Numbered from the stretch's first letter, positions 2,495 through 39,935 are shown. The stretch: 64,000 nt of DNA from Nanobdellota archaeon (GCA_030647965.1 JAUSIT010000016.1:8429-72428); one strand, 5' to 3'. Numbers and translations are program-made. The notes: generated by a model from the letters alone, not told the origin.

Positions 2495-2646
2495 TACAAC
2501 TGCGTTGAAATAATTTGCTTTAACAAGCAATTATACCAAGATTGTCTAGCGACAAAAGATTTCGCTCTTGCAATAAGTACGCAATATAGAAGAGCAAAAT
2601 CTTTTGAATTGACGATTTATTAATAATAGGCACCGTTAGGTGGCTT
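2495..2646. repeat. structured intergenic repeat family, copy A (inverted orientation relative to copies B/C)
   Basis: Reverse complement matches 16300-16375 and 17960-18090 (e.g. ttgtcgctagacaatcttRgtataattgcttgttaaagcaaaYtatYtcaacgYagttg); internal hairpin 2554..2605. Confidence 0.6.
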
Positions 2647-2706
2647 AATATTCTCATAAAGTGCTATCATCAGTAAATATAAAATCTTCTCTTATATGAG
2701 ATATTC

Positions 2707-4152
2707 TCAATAAGTCTTTGCAACATATAGATAGTAATCTGCAGGTTTATTACAAATAATACATTTTTCAGCTTTTTTCAGTTTTTCATCTGAAATAAAC
2801 AAAGCTTTTGCTCCGCCTGTTTCTGATTTTAAACTATCTTCACACTCAGTCATTTTACAAAAAGGTACAATCGCCACTTTTTTATCAATTATTATTTTTT
2901 TAAGTTCATTTAAGCTTGAAGCTTTTTCTGTTTTATCATAAAATAATTTTTTTGATTTTTCATACATTGATTTTTGTATATCTTCTAAAATTTTTGGAAT
3001 TTCTTTTTTTAAACTTGCTATTTTTATTGATTGTTTTTTTCCATTATCTCTTCTTACTGTAACTGCCTCTTTTTTATCTAAATCTCTTTCACCTAATTCA
3101 ATTCTTATTGGAATTCCTTTTAGTTCATATTCATTAAATTTAAAGCCAGGCCTATATTCTTCCCTATCATCTAAAATAGGTTCAAATTCTTTTAATTCTA
3201 ATTTTATTTTTTCTGCTTCTTTTAAGATTTTATTTTTATTATCCTCAGTAAATATTGGGACAATTACTATTTTATTTTGTGCAATTTTTGGAGGAAGAAC
3301 TAAACCCTTTGAATCAGAATGAATTGCAAATAAAACGCCCAACATTCTTGTAGTAATTGCAAAAGTATTTTGCCAGACATACTGCTCTTTTTTATTTTCA
3401 TCTAAAAATTTAATATCATATGCTTTTGAAAAATTTTGACCATCATGATGAAATGCAGGCCCTTCTGTTGCTTTTCCATTGGGCAAAATATAATGAATTT
3501 TTTCTGAAAAAACACCTCCGGCAAACTTTTCATTTTCTGTTTTTCTTCCAATCATGCCATATAAAGCAAGATAGTTTTCACATATTTCTTGATAGATAGT
3601 TAAAATTTCCTTACTTTCTTTTAATGAATCTTTTTCATTTGCAAATGCAGTGTGTCCTTCATTCCATAAAAATTCTCTATTTCTAAAAAATGGAACAGGA
3701 TGCTTAAATTCCCATCTTATTACATTATTCCATTGATTTAATCTTAATGGCAAATCTCTCCAGCTTCTAATCCATTTTGAATAAGATGAATACATTATTG
3801 CTTCTGAAGTTGGCCTTATTGCTAATCTTTCACTTAATTTTGTATTTCCTGTTTCTGTAACCCATGCAACTTCTGGAGAAAAACCTGCTACATGTTCTTT
3901 TTCTTTTGCAAATAATTTTTCAGGGATTAATAATGGGAAATAAACATTTTTTATTCCTGATTTTTTAAATCTTAAATCACATTCTTGTTGAATTTTTTCC
4001 CAAATTGCATAGGCTGTTGGCTTAAATACAATGCAACCAGAAACATCAGTATAATCTGCTAAATCTGCTTTTAGCATTAATTGAGTAAACCATTCTGAAA
4101 AATCATCTTTTTCAACATTTATTCCTTTTGTATCTTTTTTCTCTTTTTCCAT
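2707..4152 (-). CDS. proS: proline--tRNA ligase, archaeal/eukaryotic type
   Basis: 481 aa; class II aaRS core with C-terminal zinc-binding domain typical of archaeal-type ProRS. Confidence 0.85.
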   Translation of the reverse strand: MEKEKKDTKGINVEKDDFSEWFTQLMLKADLADYTDVSGCIVFKPTAYAIWEKIQQECDLRFKKSGIKNVYFPLLIPEKLFAKEKEHVAGFSPEVAWVTETGNTKLSERLAIRPTSEAIMYSSYSKWIRSWRDLPLRLNQWNNVIRWEFKHPVPFFRNREFLWNEGHTAFANEKDSLKESKEILTIYQEICENYLALYGMIGRKTENEKFAGGVFSEKIHYILPNGKATEGPAFHHDGQNFSKAYDIKFLDENKKEQYVWQNTFAITTRMLGVLFAIHSDSKGLVLPPKIAQNKIVIVPIFTEDNKNKILKEAEKIKLELKEFEPILDDREEYRPGFKFNEYELKGIPIRIELGERDLDKKEAVTVRRDNGKKQSIKIASLKKEIPKILEDIQKSMYEKSKKLFYDKTEKASSLNELKKIIIDKKVAIVPFCKMTECEDSLKSETGGAKALFISDEKLKKAEKCIICNKPADYYLYVAKTY

Positions 4153-4311
4153 TAATTAATCAATGATTTTACGTTTAAAAATCTGTTGAAATACTACCAA
4201 AATTTTTATATACTCTTAAAAAGCTATAGTAAAAGACCAAAATTTTGACTTTTCCTAATAAGTCAAGGCTTACGACAGAGGAAATTTCAAAGTCCTTGAC
4301 TATACAATAAA

Positions 4312-4656
4312 ATGGCTGAAATAAAACAAAATGAAAATATGCCTTATTTTTTTCTAATTAGTAATAAATATACATTAGGTACTCCCCGAGGAATAGCTAT
4401 TTCCGAAAGGACAATAGATATCCTATTTCATGATCTTGCACATAATTATAAATTACAGACAAAATTAAATTTAGCTTCAGCAATGCTTTTTGGAAGGGGA
4501 ATAGACTTAGTAAGCCATACAGCATCATATTTGGCTGCGTTTGCTAATAATCCTAATGAAGAAGGACAAAGAAGAGATTATTTAGTTAATAATGGAATAG
4601 TCAGAATTTTGGTAAAAGATGATATATTAAGAGATGAAGTTAGAAAAGCAATATAA
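4312..4656 (+). CDS. hypothetical protein
   Basis: ORF track only. Confidence 0.35.
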   Translation: MAEIKQNENMPYFFLISNKYTLGTPRGIAISERTIDILFHDLAHNYKLQTKLNLASAMLFGRGIDLVSHTASYLAAFANNPNEEGQRRDYLVNNGIVRILVKDDILRDEVRKAI

Positions 4657-4749
4657 TTTTTTATCTTTTAGCAACTTATCAATAATTTTTAATTCTAAAT
4701 TCTAAATAAAACAAATAGGGTATAGAACATTATTAACTAAAAGTGATTA

Positions 4750-5142
4750 TTATCTTTTAAGAAATGAGTTTATTCTTTCTTGTGGAACTAAAACATTCAT
4801 TTCTACTTTTCCTGAAAATGCTTCTTGACAATAATCATCGATTGCAACAGGTTTATCTTCAACCATAGGGTCATAAACAAGTCCATTTGAATAACATACT
4901 TGATGTGCGCCCCATTTTATTCTCCCCTGATATAACCGGGGAGTTATTGTTTCTCTGTTAAATTTATCAATTAAACGCCCTTCAACTACTAAAATACTAG
5001 GTTTTTTACCCTCATTGGATAATATTTTTGCAATATGTATTGCAATAAGGCCGCAGCTTTCACTATAATTTCCATCAGGAGTTTTATAATCATTTGCTAG
5101 TGTTTGATGTTTGCTAGCCATATATTCTAATATTGATTCCAT
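4750..5142 (-). CDS. hypothetical protein
   Basis: ORF track only. Confidence 0.35.
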   Translation of the reverse strand: MESILEYMASKHQTLANDYKTPDGNYSESCGLIAIHIAKILSNEGKKPSILVVEGRLIDKFNRETITPRLYQGRIKWGAHQVCYSNGLVYDPMVEDKPVAIDDYCQEAFSGKVEMNVLVPQERINSFLKR

Positions 5143-5215
5143 AAAATTTAGTCTTTTATTCCATATTTAAATGTTTTTTCAATATATTTAAAAGCCAAAT
5201 TTTCTTTAAGAAAAT

Positions 5216-5917
5216 ATGGACAAGAAAAAACTGGTGAAAAATATTTTTTTATGTTTGACAGGACCTAAAGAACATTTTTTAAAACAATTAAAAGAAGTTG
5301 AAGAATATAAAATAACAGAAGTTTGTGTGTTTTTGACTTTTCTTAATCCTGAACAAAGAAAAGAAATTTATAAATTATTATTAAAATCCTGCATTAAAAA
5401 TATTCCTTTAGTTCATATAAGGCATGATATGGTCAATGAAGAAATTGAATTTTTTATTAAAAATTTTAATACTAAATATTTTAATACTCATGAAGAAAGT
5501 TTTGATGAAAAAGAAAAGAAATTAGGATTTTTATATACTGAAAAATGGAAAAAACATTATGATAAATTACTTGTTGAATTGCGTTATCGTAATTCAGATT
5601 TTAAAAATTTAGATATGAAAAAAATAGGGGGATTTTGTATTGACCTTTCTCATTTCAAAGCTGCTGAAGATAGAAAAACAACAGAATATAATTTTATAAT
5701 GCAATATAAAACTAATAAAAATCTTTTTGTTGCAAACCATTTGAATGGTTATGATTTAAAGAAAAAACTTGAAATGCATGGTGTAAAAAATTTAAGCAAT
5801 TTTGATTATCTTAAAACAATTCCTGAATTTTTATTTGGGGAGATTATTTCATTTGAGATGGAGAATTCAATTAAAGAACAGATTGAATTTAAGAAATATC
5901 TTGTAAATTTTCTTTAA
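5216..5917 (+). CDS. hypothetical protein
   Basis: ORF track only. Confidence 0.4.
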   Translation: MDKKKLVKNIFLCLTGPKEHFLKQLKEVEEYKITEVCVFLTFLNPEQRKEIYKLLLKSCIKNIPLVHIRHDMVNEEIEFFIKNFNTKYFNTHEESFDEKEKKLGFLYTEKWKKHYDKLLVELRYRNSDFKNLDMKKIGGFCIDLSHFKAAEDRKTTEYNFIMQYKTNKNLFVANHLNGYDLKKKLEMHGVKNLSNFDYLKTIPEFLFGEIISFEMENSIKEQIEFKKYLVNFL

Positions 5918-6127
5918 TTATATTTGTCCTGTTTCTGAAAACTTTTTCATTGCTCTTTCAAGCATAACTTGAGGTGCAAAGCCTTTGTGACTGCATGCTT
6001 TCATAAAGTCATCATAGACTTTTCTGTCAACATTATAGTCAAGTCTTCTTTTTTGTGCATCTGGTGGTGTTGCTGCCATATATAGATATAATAAATTTGT
6101 TTTATAAATGTAACTGATTGTGGGCAA
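5918..6127 (-). CDS. small DNA-binding protein, ribbon-helix-helix-like
   Basis: 'KRRLDYNVDRKVYDDFMKACSHKGFAPQVMLERAMKKF' resembles RHH/CopG fold. Confidence 0.3.
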   Translation of the reverse strand: MPTISYIYKTNLLYLYMAATPPDAQKRRLDYNVDRKVYDDFMKACSHKGFAPQVMLERAMKKFSETGQI

Positions 6128-6158
6128 GATTTAAATACAAAAAATACAAATAATCTAA

Positions 6159-6908
6159 ATGAATGAAATAATCTTATATTCTATTTTAAGTGTTTTTATT
6201 ATTAGTCTTATTTCTTTGATCGGAGTTTTATTTCTTTCATTTAAAACAGATAAATTAAACACAATTCTTATTTATTTTATTAGTTTTTCAGCAGGAGCTT
6301 TATTTGGAGATGTTTTTATTCATTTAATTCCTAGTTTGGTTAAAGAAAATGAGTTTAGTGTTTTTAGTGCTTTGTTTATTTTGTTTGGAATTTTAATATT
6401 TTTTATTTTAGAAAAGATTTTACACTGGCAGCATTGCCATATGCCAATTACAAAGACACATGTTCATACTTTTGCTTATATGAATTTAGTTGGAGATTCT
6501 TTACATAATTTTATTGATGGTTTAATTATTGCTGCAAGTTATCTTGTAAGCATTCCGATAGGTATTGCAACAACTCTTGCTGTTGTTTTACATGAAATTC
6601 CTCAAGAAATCGGAGATTTTGGAGTATTATTGCATGGCGGATTTTCAAAATCAAGAGCACTTTTAGTTAATTTTATAACTGCTTTAACTGCATTTGCAGG
6701 ATTATTTATAGGATTATGGTTGGGAGAGATTATTCCTAATATAAGCTTATTTTTCATTTCAATTGCTGCAGGAGGCTTTATTTATATTGCAGGTAGTGAT
6801 TTAATACCTGAATTACATAAAGAAACCTCTTTTTCAAAGTCTTTAGTTCAAACACTAGCATTTATCTTAGGAATCTTAGTTATGTTTTCTTTGCTGTTAA
6901 TTGAGTAA
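6159..6908 (+). CDS. zupT: ZIP-family zinc/metal transporter
   Basis: Multi-TM protein with ZIP signature 'HEIPQEIGDFGVL' and His-rich loop; TATA-like element about 25 nt upstream. Confidence 0.7.
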   Translation: MNEIILYSILSVFIISLISLIGVLFLSFKTDKLNTILIYFISFSAGALFGDVFIHLIPSLVKENEFSVFSALFILFGILIFFILEKILHWQHCHMPITKTHVHTFAYMNLVGDSLHNFIDGLIIAASYLVSIPIGIATTLAVVLHEIPQEIGDFGVLLHGGFSKSRALLVNFITALTAFAGLFIGLWLGEIIPNISLFFISIAAGGFIYIAGSDLIPELHKETSFSKSLVQTLAFILGILVMFSLLLIE

Positions 6909-7036
6909 AATACTCTTAAAACAAGGTAAAATTCTAAGACACATAAATTTATAAGCGTAAAAAAAATATAAAATTATGAAAAATAGTAGATTAGGAAACT
7001 ATTCTATTATTATGAGTGTAAGGAGGATTTATACAT

Positions 7037-7240
7037 ATGGGAAGATTTAACGACGGACCAAGAAGTGGCGGAAGTGGCGGATTTGGCGGTGGAAACCGAT
7101 TTAGAAGTTTCGAACCAAGAGAAATGTCAAAAGCAACCTGCTCTGAATGTGGAAAGGAATGCGAAGTTCCATTCAAACCTACAGAAGGCAAGCCAGTTTA
7201 TTGCAAAGAATGTTATATGAAGAAAAAGCCAAGATTTTAA
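7037..7240 (+). CDS. small Gly/Arg-rich zinc-ribbon protein
   Basis: CSECGKEC...CKEC (CxxC-x17-CxxC); AGGAGG SD upstream. Confidence 0.5.
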   Translation: MGRFNDGPRSGGSGGFGGGNRFRSFEPREMSKATCSECGKECEVPFKPTEGKPVYCKECYMKKKPRF

Positions 7241-7360
7241 TTAATCTAGGTTTTATTTAATTATAATATAAGACAATTTTTATTTTTTTTATTTAATATT
7301 TTTCTAGAAAAAGGGGTTAGAAAGGGTAATCGACGACTAATTGTACGATCTATTACCACA

Positions 7361-7415
7361 ATGTTTAAATAGTGTAATAAATACACTAAGTATGTGTATA
7401 ACACACACTAAGTAA
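7361..7415 (+). promoter_or_regulatory. conserved TATA + palindromic block shared with 12470..12535 and (related) 18121..18154; candidate NAD-regulon operator
   Basis: aatgtttaaatagtgtaataaatacactaagtatgtgtataacacacactaagtaa; palindromes agtgta-N5-tacact. Confidence 0.45.
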
Positions 7416-7439
7416 AAAACATACGACAAAATAAAAAAT

Positions 7440-7618
7440 CCCAATCACAGCAAGCTGTGGGGTATTTTTTAAATGTCGAGAATCTACGGATTCTTGAGCA
7501 CACTCCAAAACAAAATTCTCCAAGGAGAATTTTTCAAAGTTTTGGATGCCTCCAAATGGGACGACGACAAATCGTAACAAGCTACGAAGTATAAGACCCA
7601 TTTAGAGTAATCAAAAAA
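7440..7618 (+). promoter_or_regulatory. long hairpin-rich leader upstream of NAD salvage operon
   Basis: Consecutive hairpins: cccaatcacagc/gctgtgggg; cgagaatc-tacg-gattcttg; aaattctcc-aa-ggagaattt; tttgga-tgcc-tccaaa. Confidence 0.4.
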
Positions 7619-8758
7619 ATGACACAAAGAAAAAATATAAACATTGCAAGAGATTACCTTGATTTTACTGATAAATATTTTCAGAGAACAAGACAAATAC
7701 TTGAAGAAGAAGGAATAAACCCTATTGTTAGATATCAATTATTTGTAAGAAAGCCGGGAATTGTAAAAGGGGTTGATGAAGCTGTTGATTTTATTAAAAG
7801 TGTTGCTGGAAACAAGGGAAAAATTTATGCTTTAAGGGATGGAAATTCTTATGATTCATGTGAACCTTTGATAAAACTAGAGGGAAGGGTACAGGATTTT
7901 GTTAATCCTGAAACAGCATATCTTGGAATTATATCAGGAGCTTTAACAGAAAACATAAATATGGTTGATGTAAGAGAAAAAGCAAGAGATATTTTCAATG
8001 CTGCACAAGGCAAACCAGTTCTTTATATGGGCGCAAGGCATTTTGATTATTCATTAGATGAAGAAATAGCAAAAATCTGTCAAGAAGAAGGATTTATTGG
8101 ATGTTCAACAGATATTGGAGCAAAAGCCTGGAATGCAAAAGGTCTAGGAACAACTCCTCATGCTTTGATTGTAAGTTATGCTGCATATATGGATGAAAAT
8201 GGAATAAAAGGAAATGCAACTGTTGAAGCAGCAAAAGGATTTGACAAATATATTGAAAAAGATGTTGCAAGAATAATGTTAATTGATACATTTAATAGAG
8301 AAATTACAGATTCAATTGAAACAGCAAAAGCAGTTCCAAGTTTAAAAGGAGTTAGAATAGATACTTGTGGAGAAAATTATACACAAGGTTCTGTTGGTTT
8401 AAAACTTCCAGAATTAGATGTTCCTGAAAAATATCTAAGAGGAAAAGGAGTTACAATTGCAGGAGTTTGGGGCTTAAGAAAAGCATTAGTTGAAAATGGT
8501 TTTGGAAATTTAGGGCAAGTAGTTTCTTCTGGATTTAATGCAGAAAAAACAAAAGCATTTTTAAAAGCAGACAAAGCATTTCAAGATATGTATGGATTTC
8601 CTTTATTTACATTATTTGGAACAGGAAGCATTGCAAATCCAACAATGGCAACCGCAGATATTGTTGCATATTTTAATGAAAAACAAGGAAAATGGAAAGA
8701 AATGCACAAAGTTGGAAGACCTGAAATTCAAACAAGCAGATTGGAGGAAATAAAATGA
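7619..8758 (+). CDS. pncB: nicotinate (or nicotinamide) phosphoribosyltransferase
   Basis: 379 aa; similarity by eye to archaeal NAPRT; first gene of NAD salvage operon with overlapping start/stops. Confidence 0.55.
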   Translation: MTQRKNINIARDYLDFTDKYFQRTRQILEEEGINPIVRYQLFVRKPGIVKGVDEAVDFIKSVAGNKGKIYALRDGNSYDSCEPLIKLEGRVQDFVNPETAYLGIISGALTENINMVDVREKARDIFNAAQGKPVLYMGARHFDYSLDEEIAKICQEEGFIGCSTDIGAKAWNAKGLGTTPHALIVSYAAYMDENGIKGNATVEAAKGFDKYIEKDVARIMLIDTFNREITDSIETAKAVPSLKGVRIDTCGENYTQGSVGLKLPELDVPEKYLRGKGVTIAGVWGLRKALVENGFGNLGQVVSSGFNAEKTKAFLKADKAFQDMYGFPLFTLFGTGSIANPTMATADIVAYFNEKQGKWKEMHKVGRPEIQTSRLEEIK

Positions 8759-9471
8759 AAGTATTTTATGATGTAGACACACAAAATGATTTTATGAATT
8801 CAAATGGAGCATTATATGTTCCTGATGCAGAGCTAATAAAACCAAATTTGATATTATTGACTGATTATGCAGAAGGCGAAAAATATAATGAAAAAAGATT
8901 TCCAATAATTGGCTCTGTTGACAGGCATTTTGGTAGTGAAGAATATAAAGAAAGAGAAGGAGAACTTGCTAAATGGGGAGGGCCTTTTCCAGACCATTGC
9001 ATGGATAAGAGTGAAGGATATAGAAAAATAGCTGAGACATTTTTATGGACAGATAATTTTAGGGGAGATGGTTGTAGTCATACTTCTCTTTATATGGAAA
9101 ATAGATTAGATTCTTTGATAGATTATAAATTAATGCAGAAAGCTCTTGAAACAATACGTTTTAAATATCAAAATTGGGGGCCATCTGCAGTTTATTTTGA
9201 AAAACAAAGTTATGATGTTTTTACAAATCCTGCAATTGATTGTTTTTTGAGATTAGCAAAAATAGATGAAGCAGTAGTTTATGGAGTTGCAACTGATTAT
9301 TGTGTTAAAGCAGCTGTTCTTGGAATGCAAGAAAGAGGAATTAAATGTTATGTTGTAGAAGATGCAATAAAAGGAGTTTTTCCAGAATCTACACAAAAAG
9401 CTCTCGAAGAAATGACTAATGCTGGAGCAGAGCTTGTAACAACACAGGATGTTTTGGAGGGAAGAATATGA
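8755..9471 (+). CDS. pncA: nicotinamidase / isochorismatase-family hydrolase
   Basis: Isochorismatase fold motif 'VYGVATDYCVKAAVLGMQERGIKCYVVEDA' with catalytic Cys. Confidence 0.65.
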   Translation: MKVFYDVDTQNDFMNSNGALYVPDAELIKPNLILLTDYAEGEKYNEKRFPIIGSVDRHFGSEEYKEREGELAKWGGPFPDHCMDKSEGYRKIAETFLWTDNFRGDGCSHTSLYMENRLDSLIDYKLMQKALETIRFKYQNWGPSAVYFEKQSYDVFTNPAIDCFLRLAKIDEAVVYGVATDYCVKAAVLGMQERGIKCYVVEDAIKGVFPESTQKALEEMTNAGAELVTTQDVLEGRI

Positions 9472-10364: not shown

Positions 10365-10365
10365 A

Positions 10366-12380: not shown

Positions 12381-12469
12381 TTTATTAATTTGTTATTTTC
12401 TCGTCGGTTTTTATAATTTCTATTTTTCCGCAATTTTCTTAAAATATTATTATCTAATTCTATACCATA

Positions 12470-12535
12470 ATGTTTAAATAGTGTATAACATACAATAACT
12501 ATGTGTATAAGTTACACTAAGGTAAGGTAATTTCT
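12470..12535 (+). promoter_or_regulatory. conserved TATA + palindromic block (second copy), upstream of NMNAT-like gene
   Basis: taatgtttaaatagtgtataacatacaataactatgtgtataagttacactaaggtaagg; outer palindrome tagtgtaac...gttacacta. Confidence 0.45.
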
Positions 12536-12570
12536 ACACAAATCAGATAAATTAGACAGAAAACAAAAAA

Positions 12571-15203: not shown

Positions 15204-16112
15204 ATGAAGAAAACAATAAATGCAATTGTGACAATGCCACCATATGCACCATTTATAGACGAGGTTATAGAACATCCTCTTGTAAAAGGAATAAGGCTCA
15301 ATATAGTTATGCCTATAAAAAAAGATAAAAGAGAAGAATTATTGAAAGGCCTTTATGAAAAAACAAAAAACAAAAATAAGGAATTGTGGCTTGATTTAAA
15401 ATGCAGGCAGTTAAGAACTGAAAATTATGGAGTTCCTCCATTTACAGAAATTGAATTGAGCCATAAAATACAGGTTTATACTCCATGCAAAGCATATTTT
15501 TCAGATAGAAGCATAAGTGCAACTATTTTAGAAGTTGATGGAAATAAATTAATAATGCAAGAAGGTCCAAAAAGAGTTATTGGGCCAGGGGAGTCTGTAA
15601 CAATTCCTCATCCGACACTTCAGATTGAAGGCTATTTAACAGACAAAGATAAAGAGTATATTGAAACCGGAAATAAAATTGGGCTTAAGAATTATATGCT
15701 CTCTTTTGTTGAAAAAAAAGAAGATATCGAAGAATTAAAAAAATACTGCAAAGATGCAACTATAATTTCTAAGATAGAATCTCAAAAAGGTATTGATAAT
15801 CTCAAGGAAATTAATACTAGATTAATGGCTGCACGGGGAGATTTGTATATGGAGCTTAATTGGCCTCATGAAATAATTTTTGCAGTTGAAAAAATTCTTG
15901 CAAAAGATGAAAATGCAATGGTCGCTTCAAGAATTTTTTCCTCCCTAGAAGAAAGGCTAGAGCCATCATGTGAAGATTTAGGGGATGTAGATAATCTTTT
16001 GAGAATGGGATATAAAACTTTTATGTTCGGAGATGACATTTGCTTTAAAAAAGATTCTATAATTGGTGCATTGAATTTGCTTTCAATAATGGCAAGGAGG
16101 TATGTGGGATAA
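15204..16112 (+). CDS. pyruvate kinase-like TIM-barrel domain protein (truncated relative to PK)
   Basis: 'LWLDLKCRQLRT' (cf. LDTKGPEIR), 'ISKIESQKGIDNLKEI', 'LMAARGDLYMEL' (cf. MVARGDLG). Confidence 0.4.
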   Translation: MKKTINAIVTMPPYAPFIDEVIEHPLVKGIRLNIVMPIKKDKREELLKGLYEKTKNKNKELWLDLKCRQLRTENYGVPPFTEIELSHKIQVYTPCKAYFSDRSISATILEVDGNKLIMQEGPKRVIGPGESVTIPHPTLQIEGYLTDKDKEYIETGNKIGLKNYMLSFVEKKEDIEELKKYCKDATIISKIESQKGIDNLKEINTRLMAARGDLYMELNWPHEIIFAVEKILAKDENAMVASRIFSSLEERLEPSCEDLGDVDNLLRMGYKTFMFGDDICFKKDSIIGALNLLSIMARRYVG

Positions 16113-16184
16113 ATATTGCACTATGAAAAGTAATATTGCTACATAAAAATATTATCATTAAACTCTTTAAGTAATGCTACCAGT

Positions 16185-16375
16185 ACGGGAAAAAATTTTG
16201 CTCTTGTATCTTTATGTTATATATTATAAGAGCAAAATTTTTTGTTAGACAAGAAACAGGGTTAAGGCTTGTTCAACATTATTATCTCATCAGGTATTAA
16301 TTAATGGTGATTGTCGCTAGACAATCTTAGTATAATTGCTTGTTAAAGCAAACTATCTCAACGTAGTTGCATATC
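16185..16375. repeat. structured intergenic repeat family, copy B (with partial internal duplication)
   Basis: hairpin aaaattttgctctt-N22-aagagcaaaatttt; shared 3' block ttgtcgctagacaatcttagtataattgcttgttaaagcaaactatctcaacgtagttgcatat. Confidence 0.6.
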
Positions 16376-16437
16376 AAGTTTAGTAATTTACCTAACTCTC
16401 GCATAAAATTCATAAACACAAAAAACATTAGTATAAC

Positions 16438-17010: not shown

Positions 17011-17879
17011 AAATACAAACATTTACAATTGTTGCAGGAACTGCAGCATGCAATGCAAAATGCCCATATTGTGTTTCAAAAATGACTCCTCATCAAGGAG
17101 TTGGATTTGAAAAGCCTGTTGTAAACTGGCTTAATTTTGACAAAGCATGCAGGCTTGCACAAATCAGCAATGTCAGCACTGTTTTAATTACTGGAAAGGG
17201 TGAGCCAACATTATACCCTGAACAAATTACAGAATTTCTTAAAAGATTAAAAAAATTTGATTTTCCTTTAATTGAAATTCAGACAAATGCTCTTTCTTTT
17301 GGCAAAGATTTCAAAAAATATGAAAAACATCTTAAACAATGGAGAGAATTGGGATTAAACACAATTGCAATTTCTTTTGTTAGTGATAAAAAAGAAGAAA
17401 ATAAAAAAATTTATACTCCTGATTCAGATTATATTGATTTAGAAGATACTATAAAAAAATTACATAATCTTGGATTTTCTATCAGATTAAGCTGCATCAT
17501 GCTAAAGGGAGTTATGGATAGTGTTGAAAAAGTAAAAAAATTAGCTGAAAATGCAAAAAAATGGAATGTTGAACAACTAACTGTTCGTTCTGTAAAAGCA
17601 TCTGATTATTCTGAAGATAGTGATGTTTACAAATATGCAAAAGAACACGAACTTAGTGATGGACAAATTTTAGATATAGGAAAATTTCTTGAGAAAAATG
17701 CAAAAAAATTAATGACACTAGACCACGGAGCAGTTGTATATGATTTAGACGGACAAAATATATGCATAACAGATTGTTTAACTATAAAATCAAATACAGA
17801 AGAATTAAGACAGTTAATATTTTTCCCAGATGGACATTTAAGATATGATTGGAGATATGCTGGCGCAGTGATTATATAA
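17007..17879 (+). CDS. radical SAM domain protein
   Basis: 'CNAKCPYC' CxxxCxxC near N-terminus, 'TGKGEPTL'; start overlaps nadD stop. Confidence 0.55.
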   Translation: MKIQTFTIVAGTAACNAKCPYCVSKMTPHQGVGFEKPVVNWLNFDKACRLAQISNVSTVLITGKGEPTLYPEQITEFLKRLKKFDFPLIEIQTNALSFGKDFKKYEKHLKQWRELGLNTIAISFVSDKKEENKKIYTPDSDYIDLEDTIKKLHNLGFSIRLSCIMLKGVMDSVEKVKKLAENAKKWNVEQLTVRSVKASDYSEDSDVYKYAKEHELSDGQILDIGKFLEKNAKKLMTLDHGAVVYDLDGQNICITDCLTIKSNTEELRQLIFFPDGHLRYDWRYAGAVII

Positions 17880-17934
17880 TACAAAACTATAAAATTTACA
17901 CTTGCAAATTATTGCACTTCGTTAAAATACTAGG

Positions 17935-18090
17935 TCGCTTAGTGGCTCCTATCTATTAATTAATAAATCGTGATTGAAAAAGTTTCGCCCTTATATTCTT
18001 AGGTTATTTATTGTAAGAGTAAAACTTTTTTGTTAGACAATTATATTATCCTTGTTCAGTGAACAAACTATTTCAACGCAGTTGCATATG
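17935..18090. repeat. structured intergenic repeat family, copy C
   Basis: taattaataaatcgtgattgaaaaag + hairpin + ttgttagacaattatattatccttgttcagtgaacaaactatttcaacgcagttgcatat. Confidence 0.6.
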
Positions 18091-18120
18091 AGGTCTTTAA
18101 ATTTATATCATAGATAGAAT

Positions 18121-18154
18121 AAATTTAAATAGCTTATTGTAATAATAACACTAT
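18121..18154 (+). promoter_or_regulatory. TATA (aaatttaaatag) plus element related to the 7361/12470 motif directly upstream of the NrtR-like gene
   Basis: cttattgtaataataacactat; reverse complement atagtgttattattacaataag resembles atagtgtaataaatacactaag at 7368. Confidence 0.35.
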
Positions 18155-21761: not shown

Positions 21762-21868
21762 GGGCTTATAGTTCAATGGATAGAATGCCAGGCTTCGGTG
21801 GGCTTACTTTATTTAGTTAAAGAAGATGGAGAAACCTGTTGATCGAGGTTCGAATCCTCGTAGGCCCA
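21762..21868 (+). tRNA. intron-containing tRNA, anticodon read as TCG (Arg), about 36-nt intron 3' of position 37
   Basis: Acceptor GGGCTTA/TAGGCCC, D-arm GTTC..GAAT, anticodon stem CCAGG, loop CTTCGG, T-arm CGAGG-TTCGAAT-CCTCG; intron GAAG can pair with loop CTTC; no encoded CCA. Confidence 0.6.
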
Positions 21869-30496: not shown

Positions 30497-30539
30497 GAAC
30501 TTTATTAAATAGCTTAATAACTTAATAGTCCGTTAGGGT

Positions 30540-30824: not shown

Positions 30825-30835
30825 TTTAAACAAAT

Positions 30836-31048: not shown

Positions 31049-31087
31049 AAATCTATTAATGATCTTAAATTTTTAAAGATTTAGATG

Positions 31088-31621: not shown

Positions 31622-31687
31622 AAAAAAGATAAATTTATTAGATTTATAATAATTTTCAATATTGAATATATACTAATCTTACTAAAC

Positions 31688-32686: not shown

Positions 32687-32817
32687 TTTGTCTAAATCCT
32701 AACACCTAATGTAAATACCTAATTCAATATATTTAAATGTTTTCACAATATATTCACTAGTGAAAGAATGTGAATATATAAAAGAGTATATTCACAATTG
32801 ATAAAAGATAAATATCC

Positions 32818-33072
32818 TTGAGTCTTGTTTTTATTATGGTTAAAGAATTAGAACAAGAAGCAACATCCAACTTTGTTAAAGAGCAATGCGGATATTGTGA
32901 TCATGTTCTTTTAATTCCAAAAGAAGTTTATAATGAAATTGCCTTGCAAAGAGAAAAAACAGGACATAATATTGGTCTTTCAATGAGGGGCAGATATAAT
33001 GATGCTTATATAAGCAATTGCGGGTATTTTTATTGTAATGACACTTGTTTTACAAGATTTACAGAAGATTAA
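32818..33072 (+). CDS. small Cys-rich protein (candidate precursor/partner of adjacent radical SAM-SPASM enzyme)
   Basis: 84 aa with CGYCDH...CGYFYCNDTC. Confidence 0.35.
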   Translation: MSLVFIMVKELEQEATSNFVKEQCGYCDHVLLIPKEVYNEIALQREKTGHNIGLSMRGRYNDAYISNCGYFYCNDTCFTRFTED

Positions 33073-34391
33073 ATTCTAGTTCTATAAATCGATTAATTTC
33101 TGACATTAGGGCATTTTTCTTTTCACTATTCACACTATTTTTTATTATTAAGATATATTGGAACAAGAAAAATATTGACAAAAGATATAATCAAAATTTT
33201 TTTGTTTTTACTATGCAAACAATAGAAAAATCAGTTATGCCTGCTGAAACAAGAGAAAAATTCCAGTATTTTTTAAATAGGGGACAGACACCATATAATT
33301 ATGAAAAACAATTTTTAAGAGGATATTTAAATCTGGCAATAGAGATTATAAATGAAAAAAATCCAGTGCCTTATGAACTTGAAATCCAACCAACTTCTCA
33401 GTGCAATGCTTTTTGCAATCATTGCTTTGGAAAAAATTCTGCAAAAATTAAAGATAAAATTAATTCAAGAGAAGCCATGGATATAATTGTTAAACGAGTT
33501 CTTGACTTTAAACAAGATGGATATGAAGTTGAAAAAGTAAAATTCTGCGGTTCAACAGGTGAACCTTTAATGAATCCATTTACACCCTATGCTATTAGTG
33601 AATTTTATAATAAAAAATACCTAAGACTTTTTACAAATGGGATAAAATTAGCTGAAAATAAAAATAACATTTACTATCTAAAAATTTTATCAAAAGTAAA
33701 TAATACTATGTTAAGTTTAGATGCAGGAACAACAGAAACATTGCATAAAATAAAACCTGGCTCAAAAAATATTATTCTTGAAGATATTTTAGCAACAATA
33801 AAACCTATAAAAGATTTAGCTCATCAAAAAATAGAATTTGATGTTAGTTATGTTATTACCCAAGATAATTATTCTGAAATTATTGAAGCAACAAAAAAAG
33901 TAAAAGAAGCAGGAGCTGATTTAATTAGATTTAGAATTGATTTAACAGATAGGCTTGTTTCAGAGCAACATAGTGATGAAATTATAAATAAACTTAATAT
34001 TGCAAAAGAATATGGGGATGAAAATTTTAAAGTTATTCCAATTCATAGTGATAAGGAAATATGTGAAACAGATGACAATCACTTTAGTTCAAGATGTTCC
34101 AAATTAAAATGTTTTACTTCAAAATTATGGACTTGTATTGGCTCTGACGGAAATTTATATCCTTGTGGGCATATGGTTGATGCAAATGTAGAAAAATATG
34201 GTAATATTTTTATCCAAAATCTTAATGAAATTTGGAATAGTCAAAGAAAAAAAGAACTAAATAATAAACTTCCATTAGAAACATGCCATACTTGCTCACC
34301 ATTTTCATTAAGAATAAATGAGTTTATGACTTTTCTTTCAGAATTGCCTAAAAAAGAAGCACAACAATTAGTTCAAGGAGTTAAAAAATGA
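33045..34391 (+). CDS. radical SAM protein with C-terminal SPASM-like Cys cluster
   Basis: 'CNAFCNHC' CxxxCxxC; C-terminal 'CSKLKC...CIGSDGNLYPCGH...CHTC'; true start may be internal (ATG about 33204). Confidence 0.55.
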   Translation: MFYKIYRRLNSSSINRLISDIRAFFFSLFTLFFIIKIYWNKKNIDKRYNQNFFVFTMQTIEKSVMPAETREKFQYFLNRGQTPYNYEKQFLRGYLNLAIEIINEKNPVPYELEIQPTSQCNAFCNHCFGKNSAKIKDKINSREAMDIIVKRVLDFKQDGYEVEKVKFCGSTGEPLMNPFTPYAISEFYNKKYLRLFTNGIKLAENKNNIYYLKILSKVNNTMLSLDAGTTETLHKIKPGSKNIILEDILATIKPIKDLAHQKIEFDVSYVITQDNYSEIIEATKKVKEAGADLIRFRIDLTDRLVSEQHSDEIINKLNIAKEYGDENFKVIPIHSDKEICETDDNHFSSRCSKLKCFTSKLWTCIGSDGNLYPCGHMVDANVEKYGNIFIQNLNEIWNSQRKKELNNKLPLETCHTCSPFSLRINEFMTFLSELPKKEAQQLVQGVKK

Positions 34392-34960
34392 ATGAGCCAA
34401 CAAAATGTTCTGGAAAATATTCAGTATGGATAATGCCTGAAAAGAAAATTTATGATAAATTTTCAAATTTAATTTATCAACTAAGCCAAAAATATGATTT
34501 TCCATTTTTTGAACCGCATATTACATTAATTGGAAAATTATCTGGAGAAAAAAAAGATTTAATTGAAAAAACTAGTAGATTAACATCTTCTGTTAATCTT
34601 GAAACAATTAAACTTAATTATATTGATAGAGTTTTTGATGATTATTTTCGTTCTGTTTTTATAAGAGCACAAAAAACAATAAATATCCTAGACGTTAATA
34701 TTAAGGCTAAAGAAATTTTTAATCAAGGTGATCCAAAAAGATATTTTCCTTTTTATCAGCCTCATTTAAGTTTGGCTTATGGGAATTTTTCACCAAAAAT
34801 AAAAGAAAGGATTGTTTCAGATATATTAAAAGAATTTAATATAACTTCAAAAACAGATTTTAATTTAGATTTAAAATTTGAAGCAGATAAAATTTGTTTA
34901 TATTCGACTGAAGGAAAAGTTGAAAATTGGTATAACTCCGGAGGTTTTTCTTTAAAATGA
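34388..34960 (+). CDS. 2H phosphoesterase (LigT/CPDase-like)
   Basis: Two HxT/SxL motifs 'PHITLIG' and 'PHLSLAYG'. Confidence 0.5.
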   Translation: MNEPTKCSGKYSVWIMPEKKIYDKFSNLIYQLSQKYDFPFFEPHITLIGKLSGEKKDLIEKTSRLTSSVNLETIKLNYIDRVFDDYFRSVFIRAQKTINILDVNIKAKEIFNQGDPKRYFPFYQPHLSLAYGNFSPKIKERIVSDILKEFNITSKTDFNLDLKFEADKICLYSTEGKVENWYNSGGFSLK

Positions 34961-35505
34961 AAAAACATTGTGTCCGATTGTATGAATTAAGTTACCCTAT
35001 TCAGAGACATGATCAGATAAGACCTGAGAATATTGGAAAAGATAAAAAATATTATGACGAACTTCAATATTTTGAACAGTATATGGAAACTCTTAAAAAA
35101 AATAATATTGATTTAAAAACTTTAAACCCTAGAGATCCTAATCTTGCCCCAGAAGAAGTGGCTGTTGCATTTTATAATCATGAAGCATCAGAAATCTTTA
35201 GAAATGATAATGATTTAGAATGGGTAGTTAAAATTTTTAAACCAAACTCTAAATTTAATGTATTGGTCGATAGATGGTCTGGTTATGATGAATTTTATGA
35301 TTCTGTAACAGAACTAGAATCTGAAAATTTAAAAGTAATTTACACATATTCATCAGTCTATTTTGGCAGTGAAACAAATCAAATTTTAGAGATAAACAAT
35401 AAAAAAAACGCAGAAAATACTTTAATTTGTGTTGAAAATAGAAATTCTCATATTAATAATGAAAAAATAAATGATTTAATCTTATATATTGACAAAAATG
35501 CTTAA
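34957..35505 (+). CDS. hypothetical protein
   Basis: ORF track only. Confidence 0.35.
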   Translation: MKKHCVRLYELSYPIQRHDQIRPENIGKDKKYYDELQYFEQYMETLKKNNIDLKTLNPRDPNLAPEEVAVAFYNHEASEIFRNDNDLEWVVKIFKPNSKFNVLVDRWSGYDEFYDSVTELESENLKVIYTYSSVYFGSETNQILEINNKKNAENTLICVENRNSHINNEKINDLILYIDKNA

Positions 35506-36334
35506 TAAAAAACTTACTAATTTTCTTAGAACATCTTTGTTGGCAGGAATGTTAACGTTTTCTTTTGGAAATACACAGGCTCAAACAAATGAAAGATTTT
35601 TTGATGCAAAACTTGGGTTAAATTATGAATCTTCTATACTAAGAAAAATAGAAAATGTTCCATTAGAAATAAGAACAGTTGATAAAAAAAATTCAGATCA
35701 AATTATAAATGGAAATGTTGCAGGAGAGAAAAATTATGAATTTCCTGATTTTTTACCAATTATTAGTTTAAGAGCAGGAAATAAAACTACTTTATCAGAT
35801 AATTTAAACCTAAATTTAGGTGTTGGTCTTGAAACAGGCCTTTCTATTATGGCTATGGGGGATGAAGAAGAAACTTCAAATGCAGCATATAAAAGAGCGT
35901 GTGAATGGCCTATTTATGATTCTCCTAGATATGAGATATATCCTGCATTTATACATCAATCAAATAAATGGGTAAAACCAAGTATTTTTTCAGAATTAGA
36001 AATAAATGTTAAAAAAAATCCTTTTGATTTAAAAGATTTACATTTAATTTTAGGGTATAGGGTATATCCTGAAAAAATAATTGCTACAAATGGATGGAAT
36101 GATGGAACAAAAACAGATATAATGAAAAAATATGAATTATCAAATCTTTTAGTTGGCGGGCCATATATTACATTTACTACAGATACAAAAGATAAAAAAG
36201 AGATAACGATTTATCTTAATGCAGGATTAAATCATTTAATAAGTAATAAGCCAAAGGATTTTGGAAATAAAGCAGATTTTGCTTTTAGAAAAGCTAGTTT
36301 ATTTATGGGTATGGGAATGTATGTAAGATTTTAA
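35489..36334 (+). CDS. secreted hypothetical protein
   Basis: N-terminal signal-like; C-terminal ...YVRF. Confidence 0.35.
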   Translation: MTKMLNKKLTNFLRTSLLAGMLTFSFGNTQAQTNERFFDAKLGLNYESSILRKIENVPLEIRTVDKKNSDQIINGNVAGEKNYEFPDFLPIISLRAGNKTTLSDNLNLNLGVGLETGLSIMAMGDEEETSNAAYKRACEWPIYDSPRYEIYPAFIHQSNKWVKPSIFSELEINVKKNPFDLKDLHLILGYRVYPEKIIATNGWNDGTKTDIMKKYELSNLLVGGPYITFTTDTKDKKEITIYLNAGLNHLISNKPKDFGNKADFAFRKASLFMGMGMYVRF

Positions 36335-36388
36335 GATTTTAAGATTTTAATTCTTTAAACTTATAAATGCTGATTACTAAACCATTAT

Positions 36389-37552
36389 ATGAAATCCTCA
36401 AATGCATTTACAATAACTGCTAAAGACAAAAAAACAAAAGCAAGAGCAGGAATTTTGCATACAAGAAAAGGAAAAATTGAAACACCTTTTTTTATGCCTG
36501 TTGCAACTAAAACTGCTGTTAAGCATATATCTCCTGAAGACTTACATGAAATGAAAGCAAAAGCAATAATCTCAAATGCATTAATTTTATTTTTAAGGCC
36601 TGGTTCTGATATAATTAAAAAAATGGGGGGAATTGGAAAATTTATGAATTACAAAGGAATTAATGTAACTGATTCTGGGGGTTTTCAAATGTATTCTGAA
36701 AAATTTTTAATTAAAACAGAAGAAAATGGAGTTTGGTTTAATAGTCCTTTTGACGGTACAAAGCATTTTATAACTCCTGAAAAAAATATGCAAATTCAGT
36801 TAGATTTGGGAGGGGATGTTGCAATGTGCTTAGATAATATGCCTTTAATGGAAAATACAAAGGGAGAAATTGAAGAAGCAATAAGAAAAACATTTAATTG
36901 GGCTCAAAAATGCAAAAAAGAACATGATAAACTTCAAAAAAATATTCCTAAAGGAAAAAAACAATTGCTTTTTGGGATTTGCCAGGGTGGAATTTATGAA
37001 GATTTAAGAAAAACTTCTGCAACAGAAATGTCTCAGATTGATTTTGATGGATTTTCTATTGGAGGACTTGCACTTGGAGAGGAAAAAAAAGATGAATATA
37101 AAATGATTGAAATACAAAAACAAATACTTCCTGAAAATAAGCCATGTTATTTAATGGGTGCAGGAAATCCTATTGAACTTTTAGAAGCAATTTCAAGAGG
37201 AATTGATATGTTTGATTCAAGATTTCCAACTCAAAATGCAAGAAGAGGAACTATTTTTACAAGCAAAGGAAAATTAAAAATTTTAAGAAAAGAGTATAAA
37301 ACAGATAAAAATCCATTAGATAAAGGGTGCAAGTGTTTTGTATGCAAAAATCATTCAAGAGCATATATTAGGCATTTATTATTAAGAGAAGAAGCAACAG
37401 GAATGAGATTAGCAACATTTCATAATCTATATTTCTTGCAAAACTTAATGGAAAAGTCGAGAGCTGAAATTAAAAAGGGGAAGTTTTTGGAATTCAAGAA
37501 TAAAATGAAGAAGATTTATCAAAAAAATAATATACCTTCGCCTGCTTTATAG
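36389..37552 (+). CDS. tgt: tRNA-guanine transglycosylase
   Basis: 'TPFFMPVATKTAVK', Zn site 'CKCFVCKNH'; no PUA domain. Confidence 0.8.
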   Translation: MKSSNAFTITAKDKKTKARAGILHTRKGKIETPFFMPVATKTAVKHISPEDLHEMKAKAIISNALILFLRPGSDIIKKMGGIGKFMNYKGINVTDSGGFQMYSEKFLIKTEENGVWFNSPFDGTKHFITPEKNMQIQLDLGGDVAMCLDNMPLMENTKGEIEEAIRKTFNWAQKCKKEHDKLQKNIPKGKKQLLFGICQGGIYEDLRKTSATEMSQIDFDGFSIGGLALGEEKKDEYKMIEIQKQILPENKPCYLMGAGNPIELLEAISRGIDMFDSRFPTQNARRGTIFTSKGKLKILRKEYKTDKNPLDKGCKCFVCKNHSRAYIRHLLLREEATGMRLATFHNLYFLQNLMEKSRAEIKKGKFLEFKNKMKKIYQKNNIPSPAL

Positions 37553-37658
37553 AATTATATTATTTTTAGGATGCCCAAAACTTAATAAGTTAAATTAGCA
37601 TGTATTATAAATAAAACTCCAAGTTTATGGACATGAATCAAAAGGCCTTAGATAATAA

Positions 37659-38411
37659 ATGATAAAAGAGAATATTCTTAAAATAAAATCTGAAATTCCT
37701 GAAAATATTAAAATTATTGCTGCAACTAAAACAAGAAGCATAGATGAAATAAAAGAAGCTCTTTATTCTGTGATAAAAATAATAGGGGAAAATTATGTTC
37801 AAGAAGCAGAAGCAAAGTTTAATTTTTTGAAAGAATTGAAAAAAACTGCTGATGTTCGAAATGTAGTTCAAATTGCTTCCCAAGAAGAGATACATTTCGG
37901 AGCATCCCAAAAACCTAATAAACCGGAGGGTTTTTCTGATTTTGAAATTCATTTAATAGGTCATTTACAAAGAAACAAAACAAAAAAAGCTGTTGAAATT
38001 TTTGATTTAATCCAGACAGTTGATTCTATGGAAATTGCAAGAGAAATTGATAAGAGATGTTCTGAAATAAATAAGATAATGCCTGTTTTAATTGAAATAA
38101 ATATTGCCAAAGAAGAAAATAAAACCGGCTGTATGCCTGAAAATGTTTTTAAATTAGCAGAAGAAATTTCCAAGCTTAAAAATATTAAATTAAGAGGAAT
38201 TATGGCAATAGGGCCAAATTTTGATGACAAAGAAAAACTAAGACCTTATTTTAATGAAGCTAAAGAGATATTTGAAGAGTTAAAAAAAACAAATAAAGAA
38301 ATTGAAATTTTATCAATAGGAATGTCTGATTCTTGCAAGATTGCAATTGAATGCGGTTCTAATATGGTTAGAATTGGAACTTCTATTTTTGGGGAAAGGA
38401 TCCCTAAATAA
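37659..38411 (+). CDS. YggS/PROSC-family PLP-binding protein
   Basis: 'KIIAATKTRS', 'HLIGHLQRNKTKKAV'. Confidence 0.65.
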   Translation: MIKENILKIKSEIPENIKIIAATKTRSIDEIKEALYSVIKIIGENYVQEAEAKFNFLKELKKTADVRNVVQIASQEEIHFGASQKPNKPEGFSDFEIHLIGHLQRNKTKKAVEIFDLIQTVDSMEIAREIDKRCSEINKIMPVLIEINIAKEENKTGCMPENVFKLAEEISKLKNIKLRGIMAIGPNFDDKEKLRPYFNEAKEIFEELKKTNKEIEILSIGMSDSCKIAIECGSNMVRIGTSIFGERIPK

Positions 38412-38475
38412 ATAGTGTAACTCTCTAGTGGTTAAAAAACATAAAGTTTATAAATAATAGGATTAATTTAATCAG

Positions 38476-39267
38476 ATGACATATAATTCATTATTTGATA
38501 AAATCCTAAAAGGAGATCCTTCATTTAGAAAAGATCTTGTACAACAACAATATTTTGGAAGCTTGGAAAATGTTTTATCGGAAATAGAAGAAAATTTAAT
38601 TTCAAGTAAACCATATAATATTAATTTAGCATTACACCCCCCAAGAATAATAAGGGCAGTAATAGATTATAAAATTGAAAATCCTTTTCAAAAAGAGCCA
38701 GAAATTCTTTTAAGAGAAGCTATACAATTAGGATTAGATGTTTACAAAGGAAATTCTAATGTTATTGAAGAAATTAAGCAATTAAAAGAAAATATTGAAA
38801 AAAATAATGATGAGCTTTTAAAAAAAACACTTGAACAACCCATAGATAAACTTAGCTGGGATGCAACTAATCCTAAACTATCAAAAAGAACTGCAGATGA
38901 ACTAATAAAAGAAACAAAAGGGCAAGAAATTTTGTATATTGCTCTTGCACATGGAGGAATTGCTGCAGGAATGGACAGTTTTTTAAGATATTGTGATAAA
39001 ACTAATAATTATGATTCTTCTTTTTATGTTTCAAGATTTTCAATGCAAAAATTAAAAGATCTAAAACCGCAATTAACCAATACTGAAATAGAATATTTAC
39101 AAAAATTAGCGATTAGAAAAAGAGTAGTTATTTTTGATGAAGATTCGTATTCTGGAACAACATTAGATGAAGCAAATTATTTTTTTAAAACAGAAGTTTT
39201 TCCAAATAAAACAATAATTAATGCAGTTAATTCTGACGCAAGAATTAATAACATTAAATTCCTATAA
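38476..39267 (+). CDS. phosphoribosyltransferase-domain protein
   Basis: PRPP-binding-like 'VVIFDEDSYSGTTL'. Confidence 0.4.
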   Translation: MTYNSLFDKILKGDPSFRKDLVQQQYFGSLENVLSEIEENLISSKPYNINLALHPPRIIRAVIDYKIENPFQKEPEILLREAIQLGLDVYKGNSNVIEEIKQLKENIEKNNDELLKKTLEQPIDKLSWDATNPKLSKRTADELIKETKGQEILYIALAHGGIAAGMDSFLRYCDKTNNYDSSFYVSRFSMQKLKDLKPQLTNTEIEYLQKLAIRKRVVIFDEDSYSGTTLDEANYFFKTEVFPNKTIINAVNSDARINNIKFL

Positions 39268-39358
39268 TTTAAAAAAATAAAGAAATTGCTTAAAATCTAA
39301 ATTCCAGCAATTTCTGTCTTTCTAATTTAAAAATAAAAAATAAAATTTATTTATTTAC

Positions 39359-39694
39359 TTATTTCTTTTTACTTGAAGAAGGTCTTATATCTTTTTCAGC
39401 AAATTCAACTTCTATACCGCCAATTTGTTTAGCAAAAAGATTGTAGATTACACTCATTACAATTCCTGCAATAAAATATAATACTCCCATTAAAATAGGC
39501 ATTATAATTAATGCTGCCCAACCCATTGTGGAATATGCAGTATAATCTGCTCCGAGTGCTGTAGCATATGTTGGGGAATTATACATTGTAGAAATTACTC
39601 CAATCATAACTCCAACTACAAAGCCATATAAAACTCCAAATAATCCTGAAATTTTAGCTATAGACAAAGATCCTAATTTTTTTATTTCTTGCAT
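39359..39694 (-). CDS. small membrane protein
   Basis: three hydrophobic helices. Confidence 0.35.
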   Translation of the reverse strand: MQEIKKLGSLSIAKISGLFGVLYGFVVGVMIGVISTMYNSPTYATALGADYTAYSTMGWAALIIMPILMGVLYFIAGIVMSVIYNLFAKQIGGIEVEFAEKDIRPSSSKKK

Positions 39695-39774
39695 TTTAAC
39701 CTCCTTTTATCTTTTATATACTAGAAAAAAAGATTATTTAAAGGTTTTTGAATTATTAATTAAACTATCTAACT

Positions 39775-39935
39775 TAGCATGCAACTCTGTTGAGATAGTT
39801 TGTTCAAATGAACAATGATAATATAATTGCCTGCGGCAATTGACGATTAATTAATAACTAATCAGGAGCTGCAAAAAGTTTTACTCTTACAATAGGTAAC
39901 TCAAGATAGAAGAGTAAAACTTTTTCTAGGCGACT
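39775..39935. repeat. structured intergenic repeat family, copy D (modules rearranged)
   Basis: hairpin aaaagttttactctt-N21-aagagtaaaactttt; reverse complement carries ttgttcatttgaacaaactatctcaacagagttgcatgct. Confidence 0.55.

Follow-up and report, generated by a model that had tools for sequence, protein, structure and literature searches.

A 64,000-nt stretch of DNA from a Nanobdellota archaeon (GCA_030647965.1 JAUSIT010000016.1:8429-72428, hereafter the window) carries four related repeats between its genes, and the question raised by this locus is whether they encode a structured RNA, supply regulatory signals to the genes beside them, or are the remains of a mobile element. The first-pass annotation of the window had considered a small non-coding RNA family, a MITE (miniature inverted-repeat transposable element) and a promoter-carrying element, and had taken covariation in the hairpin stems to argue for selection at the RNA level. 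The analysis presented here indicates that the four repeats, designated copies A to D, probably belong to a family of non-autonomous DNA transposons (MITEs) carried by a clade of DPANN (Nanoarchaeota) archaea, as old copies that have partly decayed.

That the four copies form one family, with the shared blocks described for them, is confirmed by the tail block ACTATYTCAACGCAGTTGCAT, which has 4 matches at no more than 3 mismatches, against 0.00 expected from shuffles. A repeat search also ties the copies together, through a 62-nt match at 92% identity (A with B) and one of 110 nt at 70% (B with D), and a covariance-model scan of the 64-kb window finds exactly copies A-D and no other. The different order of modules reported for copy D is seen again when the re-oriented copies are read side by side. 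The first of the shared blocks, as it had been written, is present within 3 mismatches in copy C, but A, B and D carry only looser versions of it. The boundaries drawn at first were too narrow, as homology to full-length relatives extends all four copies past them (approximate spans in Table 1).

Table 1. Coordinates of the four window copies, of full-length homologues on metagenome contigs and of the nested palindrome hp1.
Feature	Sequence	Coordinates	Strand	Evidence or description
Copy A	window	2483-2688	-	nhmmer 2481-2555 and 2607-2688; covariance model 2491-2650, E=2e-11
Copy B	window	16113-16402	+	nhmmer 16293-16400, E=1e-28; covariance model 16270-16375, E=5e-14
Copy C	window	17888-18108	+	covariance model 17928-18090, E=4e-11; nhmmer
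Copy D	window	39754-39980	-	covariance model 39776-39886, E=7e-15; nhmmer
Full-length homologue L010a	L010	329-510		TGTWAAGTAAAC ends
Full-length homologue L010b	L010	1047-1232		TGTWAAGTAAAC ends
Full-length homologue	L012	931-1113		TGTWAAGTAAAC ends
Full-length homologue	L015	9742-9924		TGTWAAGTAAAC ends
hp1 in copy A	window	2554-2605		52 nt, 16-bp arms, one T.G pair; inside 5' arm of hairpin P
hp1 in copy B	window	16190-16243		54-nt perfect palindrome AAAAAATTTTGCTCTT ... AAGAGCAAAATTTTTT; precedes decayed partial unit
hp1 in copy C	window	17977-18030		54 nt; left arm with three non-complementary positions; same site as copy A
hp1 in copy D	window	39873-39925		53-nt perfect palindrome in loop of H1

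Homologues were sought by scanning metagenome contigs with the exact tail-block pattern, which gave 8 loci, and then by profile search. Half of the exact-pattern loci (L007, L010, L011 and L012) are true homologues and the other 4 are chance matches in coding DNA; the profile search added a second copy on L010, the L011 copy on the longer contigs L015-L018, and weaker copies in two rRNA operons, and a still more divergent homologue in L019 was recognised by eye. The sample comprises ~12 copies from ~6 genomes. With the patterns used, no copies were found in the GTDB species representatives, where one pattern scan gave 0 hits and a second gave 44, all bacterial chance matches without nhmmer support, and viral contigs gave no true matches. 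Relatives reached through homologues of the NrtR protein encoded in the window (L002-L006) have no copies, and contigs reached through Rrp4 homologues (L080-L082) contain no rRNA operon and only a doubtful remnant at L081 7992-8091. The family appears to be confined to a poorly sampled Nanoarchaeota clade.

Once the palindrome hp1 is removed from the window copies, all members align over ~185 nt (182-186 nt in intact members) and have the same anatomy. The element opens with a terminal hairpin, hp0, followed by the linker AATTATTGCRCTTCG, hairpin H1, an invariant TTAATTAAT block (-CGT), hairpin P, an AT-rich spacer, hairpin hp2, AAACTATTT, hairpin T (4-6 bp, CAAC-NNN-GTTG) and a second terminal hairpin, hp3. 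Hairpins hp3 and hp0 have the same arms. Each end of the element is itself a small hairpin; between the two ends stand H1, P, hp2 and T, all of them short hairpins, connected by linkers that are conserved and AT-rich. No open reading frame (ORF) is conserved across the copies. A candidate small protein, encoded by an ORF in L011 and L012 (MSLDNH...), was rejected, as this frame contains stops in L010 and copy D.

The homologues outside the window carry the marks of transposition. Full-length members have the 12-bp inverted repeat TGTWAAGTAAAC at both ends, the two ends matching in 7-11/12 positions, and perfect 5-bp target-site duplications flank the element in 4/4 intact copies (AATAA, TTTAT, GGTTT and TTTTT), where the chance of identical 5-bp flanks is ~0.002 per copy. 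An orthologous site was found both filled and empty: the spacer between the SBDS and Rrp4 genes contains a 183-nt element in L015 (and an element in each of L015-L018), and lacks it in L019 (Rrp4 82% identical; 44-bp spacer) and L082 (77%; 70-bp spacer), with the flanking DNA aligning across the insertion point. These observations support the MITE among the candidates first proposed. The SBDS frame of L015 ends early, just before the element, so that the protein is shortened by ~8 codons. Comparison of L015 9700-9741 with L019 3090-3124 shows that ~11 additional bases, TAAAAAGTAGA, accompany the insertion and supply the new stop codon.

The element is also multi-copy and dispersed: the window has 4 copies, the 1.5-kb contig L010 has 2, and further ones stand in either orientation beside unrelated genes. 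The statement that all copies are intergenic and next to gene starts holds for the four in the window, but homologues elsewhere differ: the L012 copy lies between convergent genes, that of L007 is next to a tRNA, the two L010 copies flank a thioredoxin gene on both sides, and the L015 copy is antisense between co-directional genes. In the window, copies A and B share 80-81% identity with L010a, as against 68-75% with C and D, and a TrmB-like protein common to the window and L019 is only 40% identical. Varied contexts, an empty site, the closeness of A and B to L010a and the low TrmB identity fit a MITE with subfamilies. A high density of MITEs has already been reported in some DPANN genomes (PMC11602168).

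If the family moves as these features suggest, a transposase supplied in trans would bind the inverted repeats and insert the element by a 5-bp staggered cut, the preferred targets being AT-rich sites between genes, either a short way upstream of a promoter or directly behind a stop codon. The TGT ends and the 5-bp duplication are reminiscent of elements of the IS3/IS481 type. In the window genome the copies have lost their clean ends and have also gained hp1 as a second, smaller element.

Copy A has the proS stop (2707) on one side and, on the other, the TATA box AACCTTTAAATA (2471-2482) of an unknown 281-aa ORF; its 3' end, comprising hp3 and the right inverted repeat, is missing, and it has no target-site duplication. 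Copy B begins at the stop codon of a pyruvate-kinase-like ORF and stands upstream of nadD. The partial internal duplication noted in it is real, and takes the form of ~1.5 units: a left part, hp1, a decayed remnant of P, hp2 and tail, and then a second unit (16288-16402), which is complete from its TTAATTAAT block through to TTTACCTAAC, the right inverted repeat. Copy C, between the stop of a radical-SAM gene (17879) and the nrtR promoter, has degenerate ends, with inverted repeats that match in 7/12 positions, and no target-site duplication. Copy D occupies the divergent spacer between a 111-aa membrane-protein gene (39359-39694, - strand) and an ORF at 40068 (+ strand); its left inverted-repeat hairpin has collapsed to TGTAAAATTTACA, its right repeat is GTTTAATTAATA, the two match in 7/12 positions, and no clean target-site duplication is present. 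With no detectable duplications and with eroded ends, the window copies are probably old and immobile.

Each of the four window copies also contains hp1, a palindrome of 52-54 nt whose arms measure 15-16 bp and which has T-runs on both strands. This is the long hairpin, first described as a block of the repeat, on which the first-pass annotation had relied most. The palindrome is missing from 8/8 homologues outside the window genome. Its site in copies A and C is the 5' arm of P, which it splits, and in copy D the loop of H1, with a junction reading AGTCGCCTAG-hp1-GCAGCT where L007 has AGTTGCTTAGCAGCT. Because its position differs between copies, hp1 is no ancestral part of the element: it is nested in the MITE as a secondary insertion, at no fewer than two sites, and was seen in this genome alone. 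Arm differences among its copies are compensatory at three positions, in line with the statement that the stem stays complementary, but the three mismatched positions in copy C break that rule. The hp1 junctions are ambiguous as to a target-site duplication, with possibly TG in copy C and none in A or D. By analogy with REP-like palindromes, hp1 may be a second mini-element, and a hairpin with oligo-T on both strands would make a bidirectional archaeal terminator.

Several observations weigh against a MITE as the whole explanation. Neither the 64-kb window nor the loci fetched yielded a transposase or an autonomous element with these inverted repeats, the window ORFs tested contain no transposase domain, and there are no other inverted-repeat matches in the window. 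The window copies are without the target-site duplications found in the intact homologues, and their inverted repeats match in only 7/12 positions; their status as MITEs accordingly rests on homology. The duplications of the intact copies are AT-rich, the inverted repeats of L010a also match in only 7/12 positions, and the sample of copies is small. Finally, compensatory changes have kept the internal hairpins, to the point that L019 and the rRNA-spacer copies have had their stems completely replaced; neither this maintenance nor the pattern in the rRNA spacers is predicted by an element that is purely selfish and decaying.

Maintenance of the internal hairpins was measured in an alignment of 11 copies, using helices P, hp2 and T (16 pairs) and 500 shuffles. 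The helices pair in 93.6% of cells, compared with 84.5% in the shuffles, and changes on both sides are seen in 10/16 pairs; the observed values were reached by 0/500 shuffles, and pairing in slid controls did not exceed 42%. An independent prediction by RNAalifold also gives H1, P, hp2 and T (10/20 pairs). Divergent members have a hairpin at each position with quite different stems, those of P being ATTGTC/GACAAT, ATTGCC/GGCAAT, CTTCT/AGAAG, GTTGTT/AACAAC, GCTTC/GAAGC and CTAACT/AGTTAG. The internal hairpins are thus maintained, and the expectation that stems should covary in further copies holds for these short hairpins.

Does this maintenance signify RNA? A functional structured RNA, either a small non-coding RNA family or a cis-acting module for processing, termination or stability, with the inverted repeats explaining only its spread, would account for the doubly changed pairs that no shuffle matched and for the hairpins that divergent members keep with entirely different stems. 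Folding z-scores of -2.6 to -3.7 also speak for it, as does the orthologous copy that two rRNA operons keep in the transcribed 16S-tRNA spacer, where the linkers are conserved and the stems replaced. We nevertheless consider it unlikely that the element is, or carries, such an RNA. Its folds show no strand preference: the forward strand has 16 G.U pairs and the reverse strand 17, and energies and z-scores are alike on both (L012 -2.6 forward, -3.2 reverse), the -3.7 of copy D being largely due to hp1. The GC content of 30-39% is not above the 31% background of the genome, the stems are only 4-7 bp long, and there is no long-range structure. Searches of the window, copies B and C, L010 and L012 against Rfam (Rfam 15), judged by gathering and E-value thresholds, returned only spurious microRNA-like hairpin matches. 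No promoter-like box stands at a fixed distance, and orientation relative to neighbours is mixed, toward gene starts in the window, at convergent gene ends in L007 and L012, and antisense in L015 and the rRNA spacer. Moreover, template switching during replication can keep DNA palindromes symmetrical, by copying a change in one arm to the other, without any selection. Because there is no strand signal and template switching can have this effect, the covariation is weak evidence for RNA; it is real in the short hairpins, but the step from there to RNA-level selection does not hold, and compensatory changes in palindromic repeats are insufficient to call an RNA. Origin-recognition-box, parS-like, C/D-box and H/ACA readings were dropped, in view of the variable stems and the lack of conserved box motifs.

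Within the MITE, the internal hairpins may be kept by a requirement at the DNA level, by template-switch repair of palindromes or by an RNA function. It is doubtful, if conceivable, that the four hairpins and linkers of the transposon form a module maintained by selection, acting as an RNA processing or termination signal or as a protein-binding DNA structure. If it did, transposition would be spreading a functional structured element around DPANN genomes.

The rRNA-spacer copies bear on this point. In both rRNA operons examined (L015 and L016), the 16S-tRNA spacer contains a divergent copy, located 15-20 nt beyond the 16S 3' end and running antisense to the rRNA (covariance model E=0.009 and 3e-7). 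Both are truncated at the same point, without hp3 and the right inverted repeat, and they share the linkers TTTATTATTAATTAA, AATGATTGC and GCAAACTAT while their H1, P and T stems are entirely different; the 23S genes of the two operons are only ~90% identical. This looks like one old event followed by structure-preserving change. That both available operons carry the module in the same place, orientation and truncation, with linkers shared and stems different, could also mean that it was originally a host feature of the rRNA spacer, a signal just after the 16S 3' end, which was captured between inverted repeats and then dispersed. We regard that origin as very unlikely: only two operons are involved, the spacer copy is antisense to the orientation common to the window copies, one of the matches is weak (E=0.009), and the same data can be put down to a MITE that entered the spacer long ago. 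If the hairpins are functional, as the rRNA-spacer copies hint, the family would be a mobile element spreading a structured cis-element in archaea. The leader and the spacer copy show no convincing pairing of the kind that would form a 16S processing stem. As a separate observation, the L016 16S gene has a ~720-nt insertion near its 3' end (~17350-18070) relative to L015, and the DNA upstream is 99% identical between the two contigs, but identity drops to 77-90% in the spacer and 23S, a pattern suggestive of an rRNA intron combined with either recombination or chimeric assembly.

A regulatory role was suggested by the positions of the window copies. All four point at a downstream gene, two of these genes are NAD-related (nadD and a gene for NrtR with Nudix and NrtR_WHD domains), and the element has TATA-like AT-rich blocks and palindromes. 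The repeats could then be a shared regulatory cassette of promoter and operator, one version of which is the NrtR regulon signal. This reading is largely refuted, and we hold it to be highly improbable. The NAD loci of relatives L002, L004 and L006 share a different motif, TAGTGTAnnnnnTACACTA, right after the TATA box and with a GT-N7-AC core, and such a core within a 21-bp palindrome defines NrtR sites (PMC2330246). The TAGTGTAnnnnnTACACTA boxes of the window form a repeat family of their own (7362-7410, 12471-12520 and 18135-18153): boxes in tandem front pncB-like, pncA-like, nadE, Nudix and ADP-ribosylglycohydrolase genes and an adenylyltransferase-like gene, and a single box, at 18135-18153, stands directly before nrtR, downstream of copy C. 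The element itself is absent upstream of nrtR and nadD in those three relatives, and neither copy A nor copy D is followed by an NAD-related gene. The association of the element with NAD genes is coincidental. Its palindrome arms covary, unlike a fixed protein site, its homologues also face convergent gene ends, and its second TATA-like block is not conserved (CATGCCATCC in L010b, CACACCAATGA in L015its).

The proposal of a promoter-carrying element had applied bacterial logic to an archaeon. The window is AT-rich (31% GC), and its ORFs include GatD/GatE-type amidotransferase subunits, an archaeal-type ProRS and a TrmB regulator; its NrtR has hundreds of homologues at ~75% identity, from Nanoarchaeota or Pacearchaeota bins. 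The host is a DPANN archaeon (Nanoarchaeota), and TATAAT-like strings are therefore to be read as possible TATA boxes rather than as sigma-70 -10 boxes; the bacterial sigma-70 reading was dropped on the strength of GatD/GatE, the archaeal ProRS and TrmB. Many genes of this genome have TTTAAATA ~30 nt before the ATG; downstream of copies A, C and D the gene likewise has a TTTAAATA box of its own, which separates the element from the start codon. The analysis removes the lead of a covarying non-coding RNA or riboswitch upstream of nadD and nrtR.

The NrtR boxes are of interest in themselves. Those of the relatives lie at L002 ~9040, L004 ~8360 and ~9985, and L006 ~9065, and the boxes stand immediately after TTTAAATA TATA boxes, a typical archaeal repressor position. 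They delineate a candidate archaeal NrtR regulon. NrtR has been described in bacteria; the protein is ~75% conserved across many Nanoarchaeota. Between the boxes and the pncB-like start codon of the window lies a ~210-nt leader (7410-7618) with several GC-containing hairpins, e.g. CCCAATCACAGCAAGCTGTGGGG and GAGAATCTACGGATTCTTGAGC, and no Rfam match at E<=5. The collapsed left terminal hairpins of copies D (39968-39980, TGTAAAATTTACA) and C (17888-17900, TATAAAATTTACA) resemble the GT-N7-AC core (compare L002 GTGTAAAATTTACAC) and are not in operator position; the likeness is probably coincidental.

Set beside known systems, the repeats are an ordinary kind of feature, a MITE, but one with unusually well-preserved internal hairpins. 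With prokaryotic and archaeal MITEs, among which the SM1-SM4 elements of Sulfolobus are archaeal examples, the family shares its size of ~185 nt, within the ~50-800 bp usual for such elements, the absence of coding capacity, inverted repeats, short target-site duplications, a copy number spread over dispersed intergenic sites, and presence/absence polymorphism. It differs from them in that internal sequence is conserved across distant genomes, four hairpins are kept by compensatory change and both ends form hairpins of their own; an autonomous partner was not identified. Modular architecture is likewise seen in the BOX elements of Streptococcus pneumoniae and the Correia/NEMIS elements of Neisseria, which have variable order and number of modules and stable hairpins, lie in intergenic DNA near promoters or terminators and are probably mobilised in trans; their sequence and host domain are unrelated, and the target-site duplication here is 5 bp, not TA. 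For hp1 the closest analogues are the REP/BIME palindromes, which resemble it as nearly perfect extragenic palindromes in several copies with compensatory arm changes. Like them, hp1 lies downstream of genes, where, having T-runs on both strands, it could act as a terminator. Unlike them, it is found only inside copies of a larger MITE (4/4), at two internal sites and in one genome, with no RAYT-like gene and no clear target duplication. NrtR operators (PMC2330246) are, like the element, palindromic DNA upstream of nadD and nrtR, but the element has no 21-bp GT-N7-AC box in operator position, the real boxes being a separate repeat family. The family documents, in uncultivated Nanoarchaeota, a MITE with clean inverted repeats, target-site duplications and an empty site, together with a nested mini-palindrome; genomes in this group are small, and their mobile DNA has been little studied.

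Other features of the window were noted in passing. Rfam calls a tRNA at 21762-21868 with 54 bits, spanning 107 nt, where ARAGORN reports none; this is probably an intron-containing archaeal tRNA. The 302-aa ORF at 15204-16112, with its stop codon directly adjoining copy B at its start, shows a match to part of the pyruvate kinase barrel domain only and may be a truncated or atypical pyruvate-kinase-like gene. A second repeat family occurs at 48378-48453, 50730-50805, 52084-52159, 54970-55045 and 63274-63349, with a conserved hairpin, AAGAGAGGCAYTATA...TATAGTGCCTCTCT, that stands after small ORFs, each with a strong GGAGGTGA ribosome-binding site. The region of ~42-57 kb in which these hairpins occur also codes for a HerA/Zot-like ATPase (43893-45836), and may be an integrated element or a cluster of small-protein genes with shared terminators.

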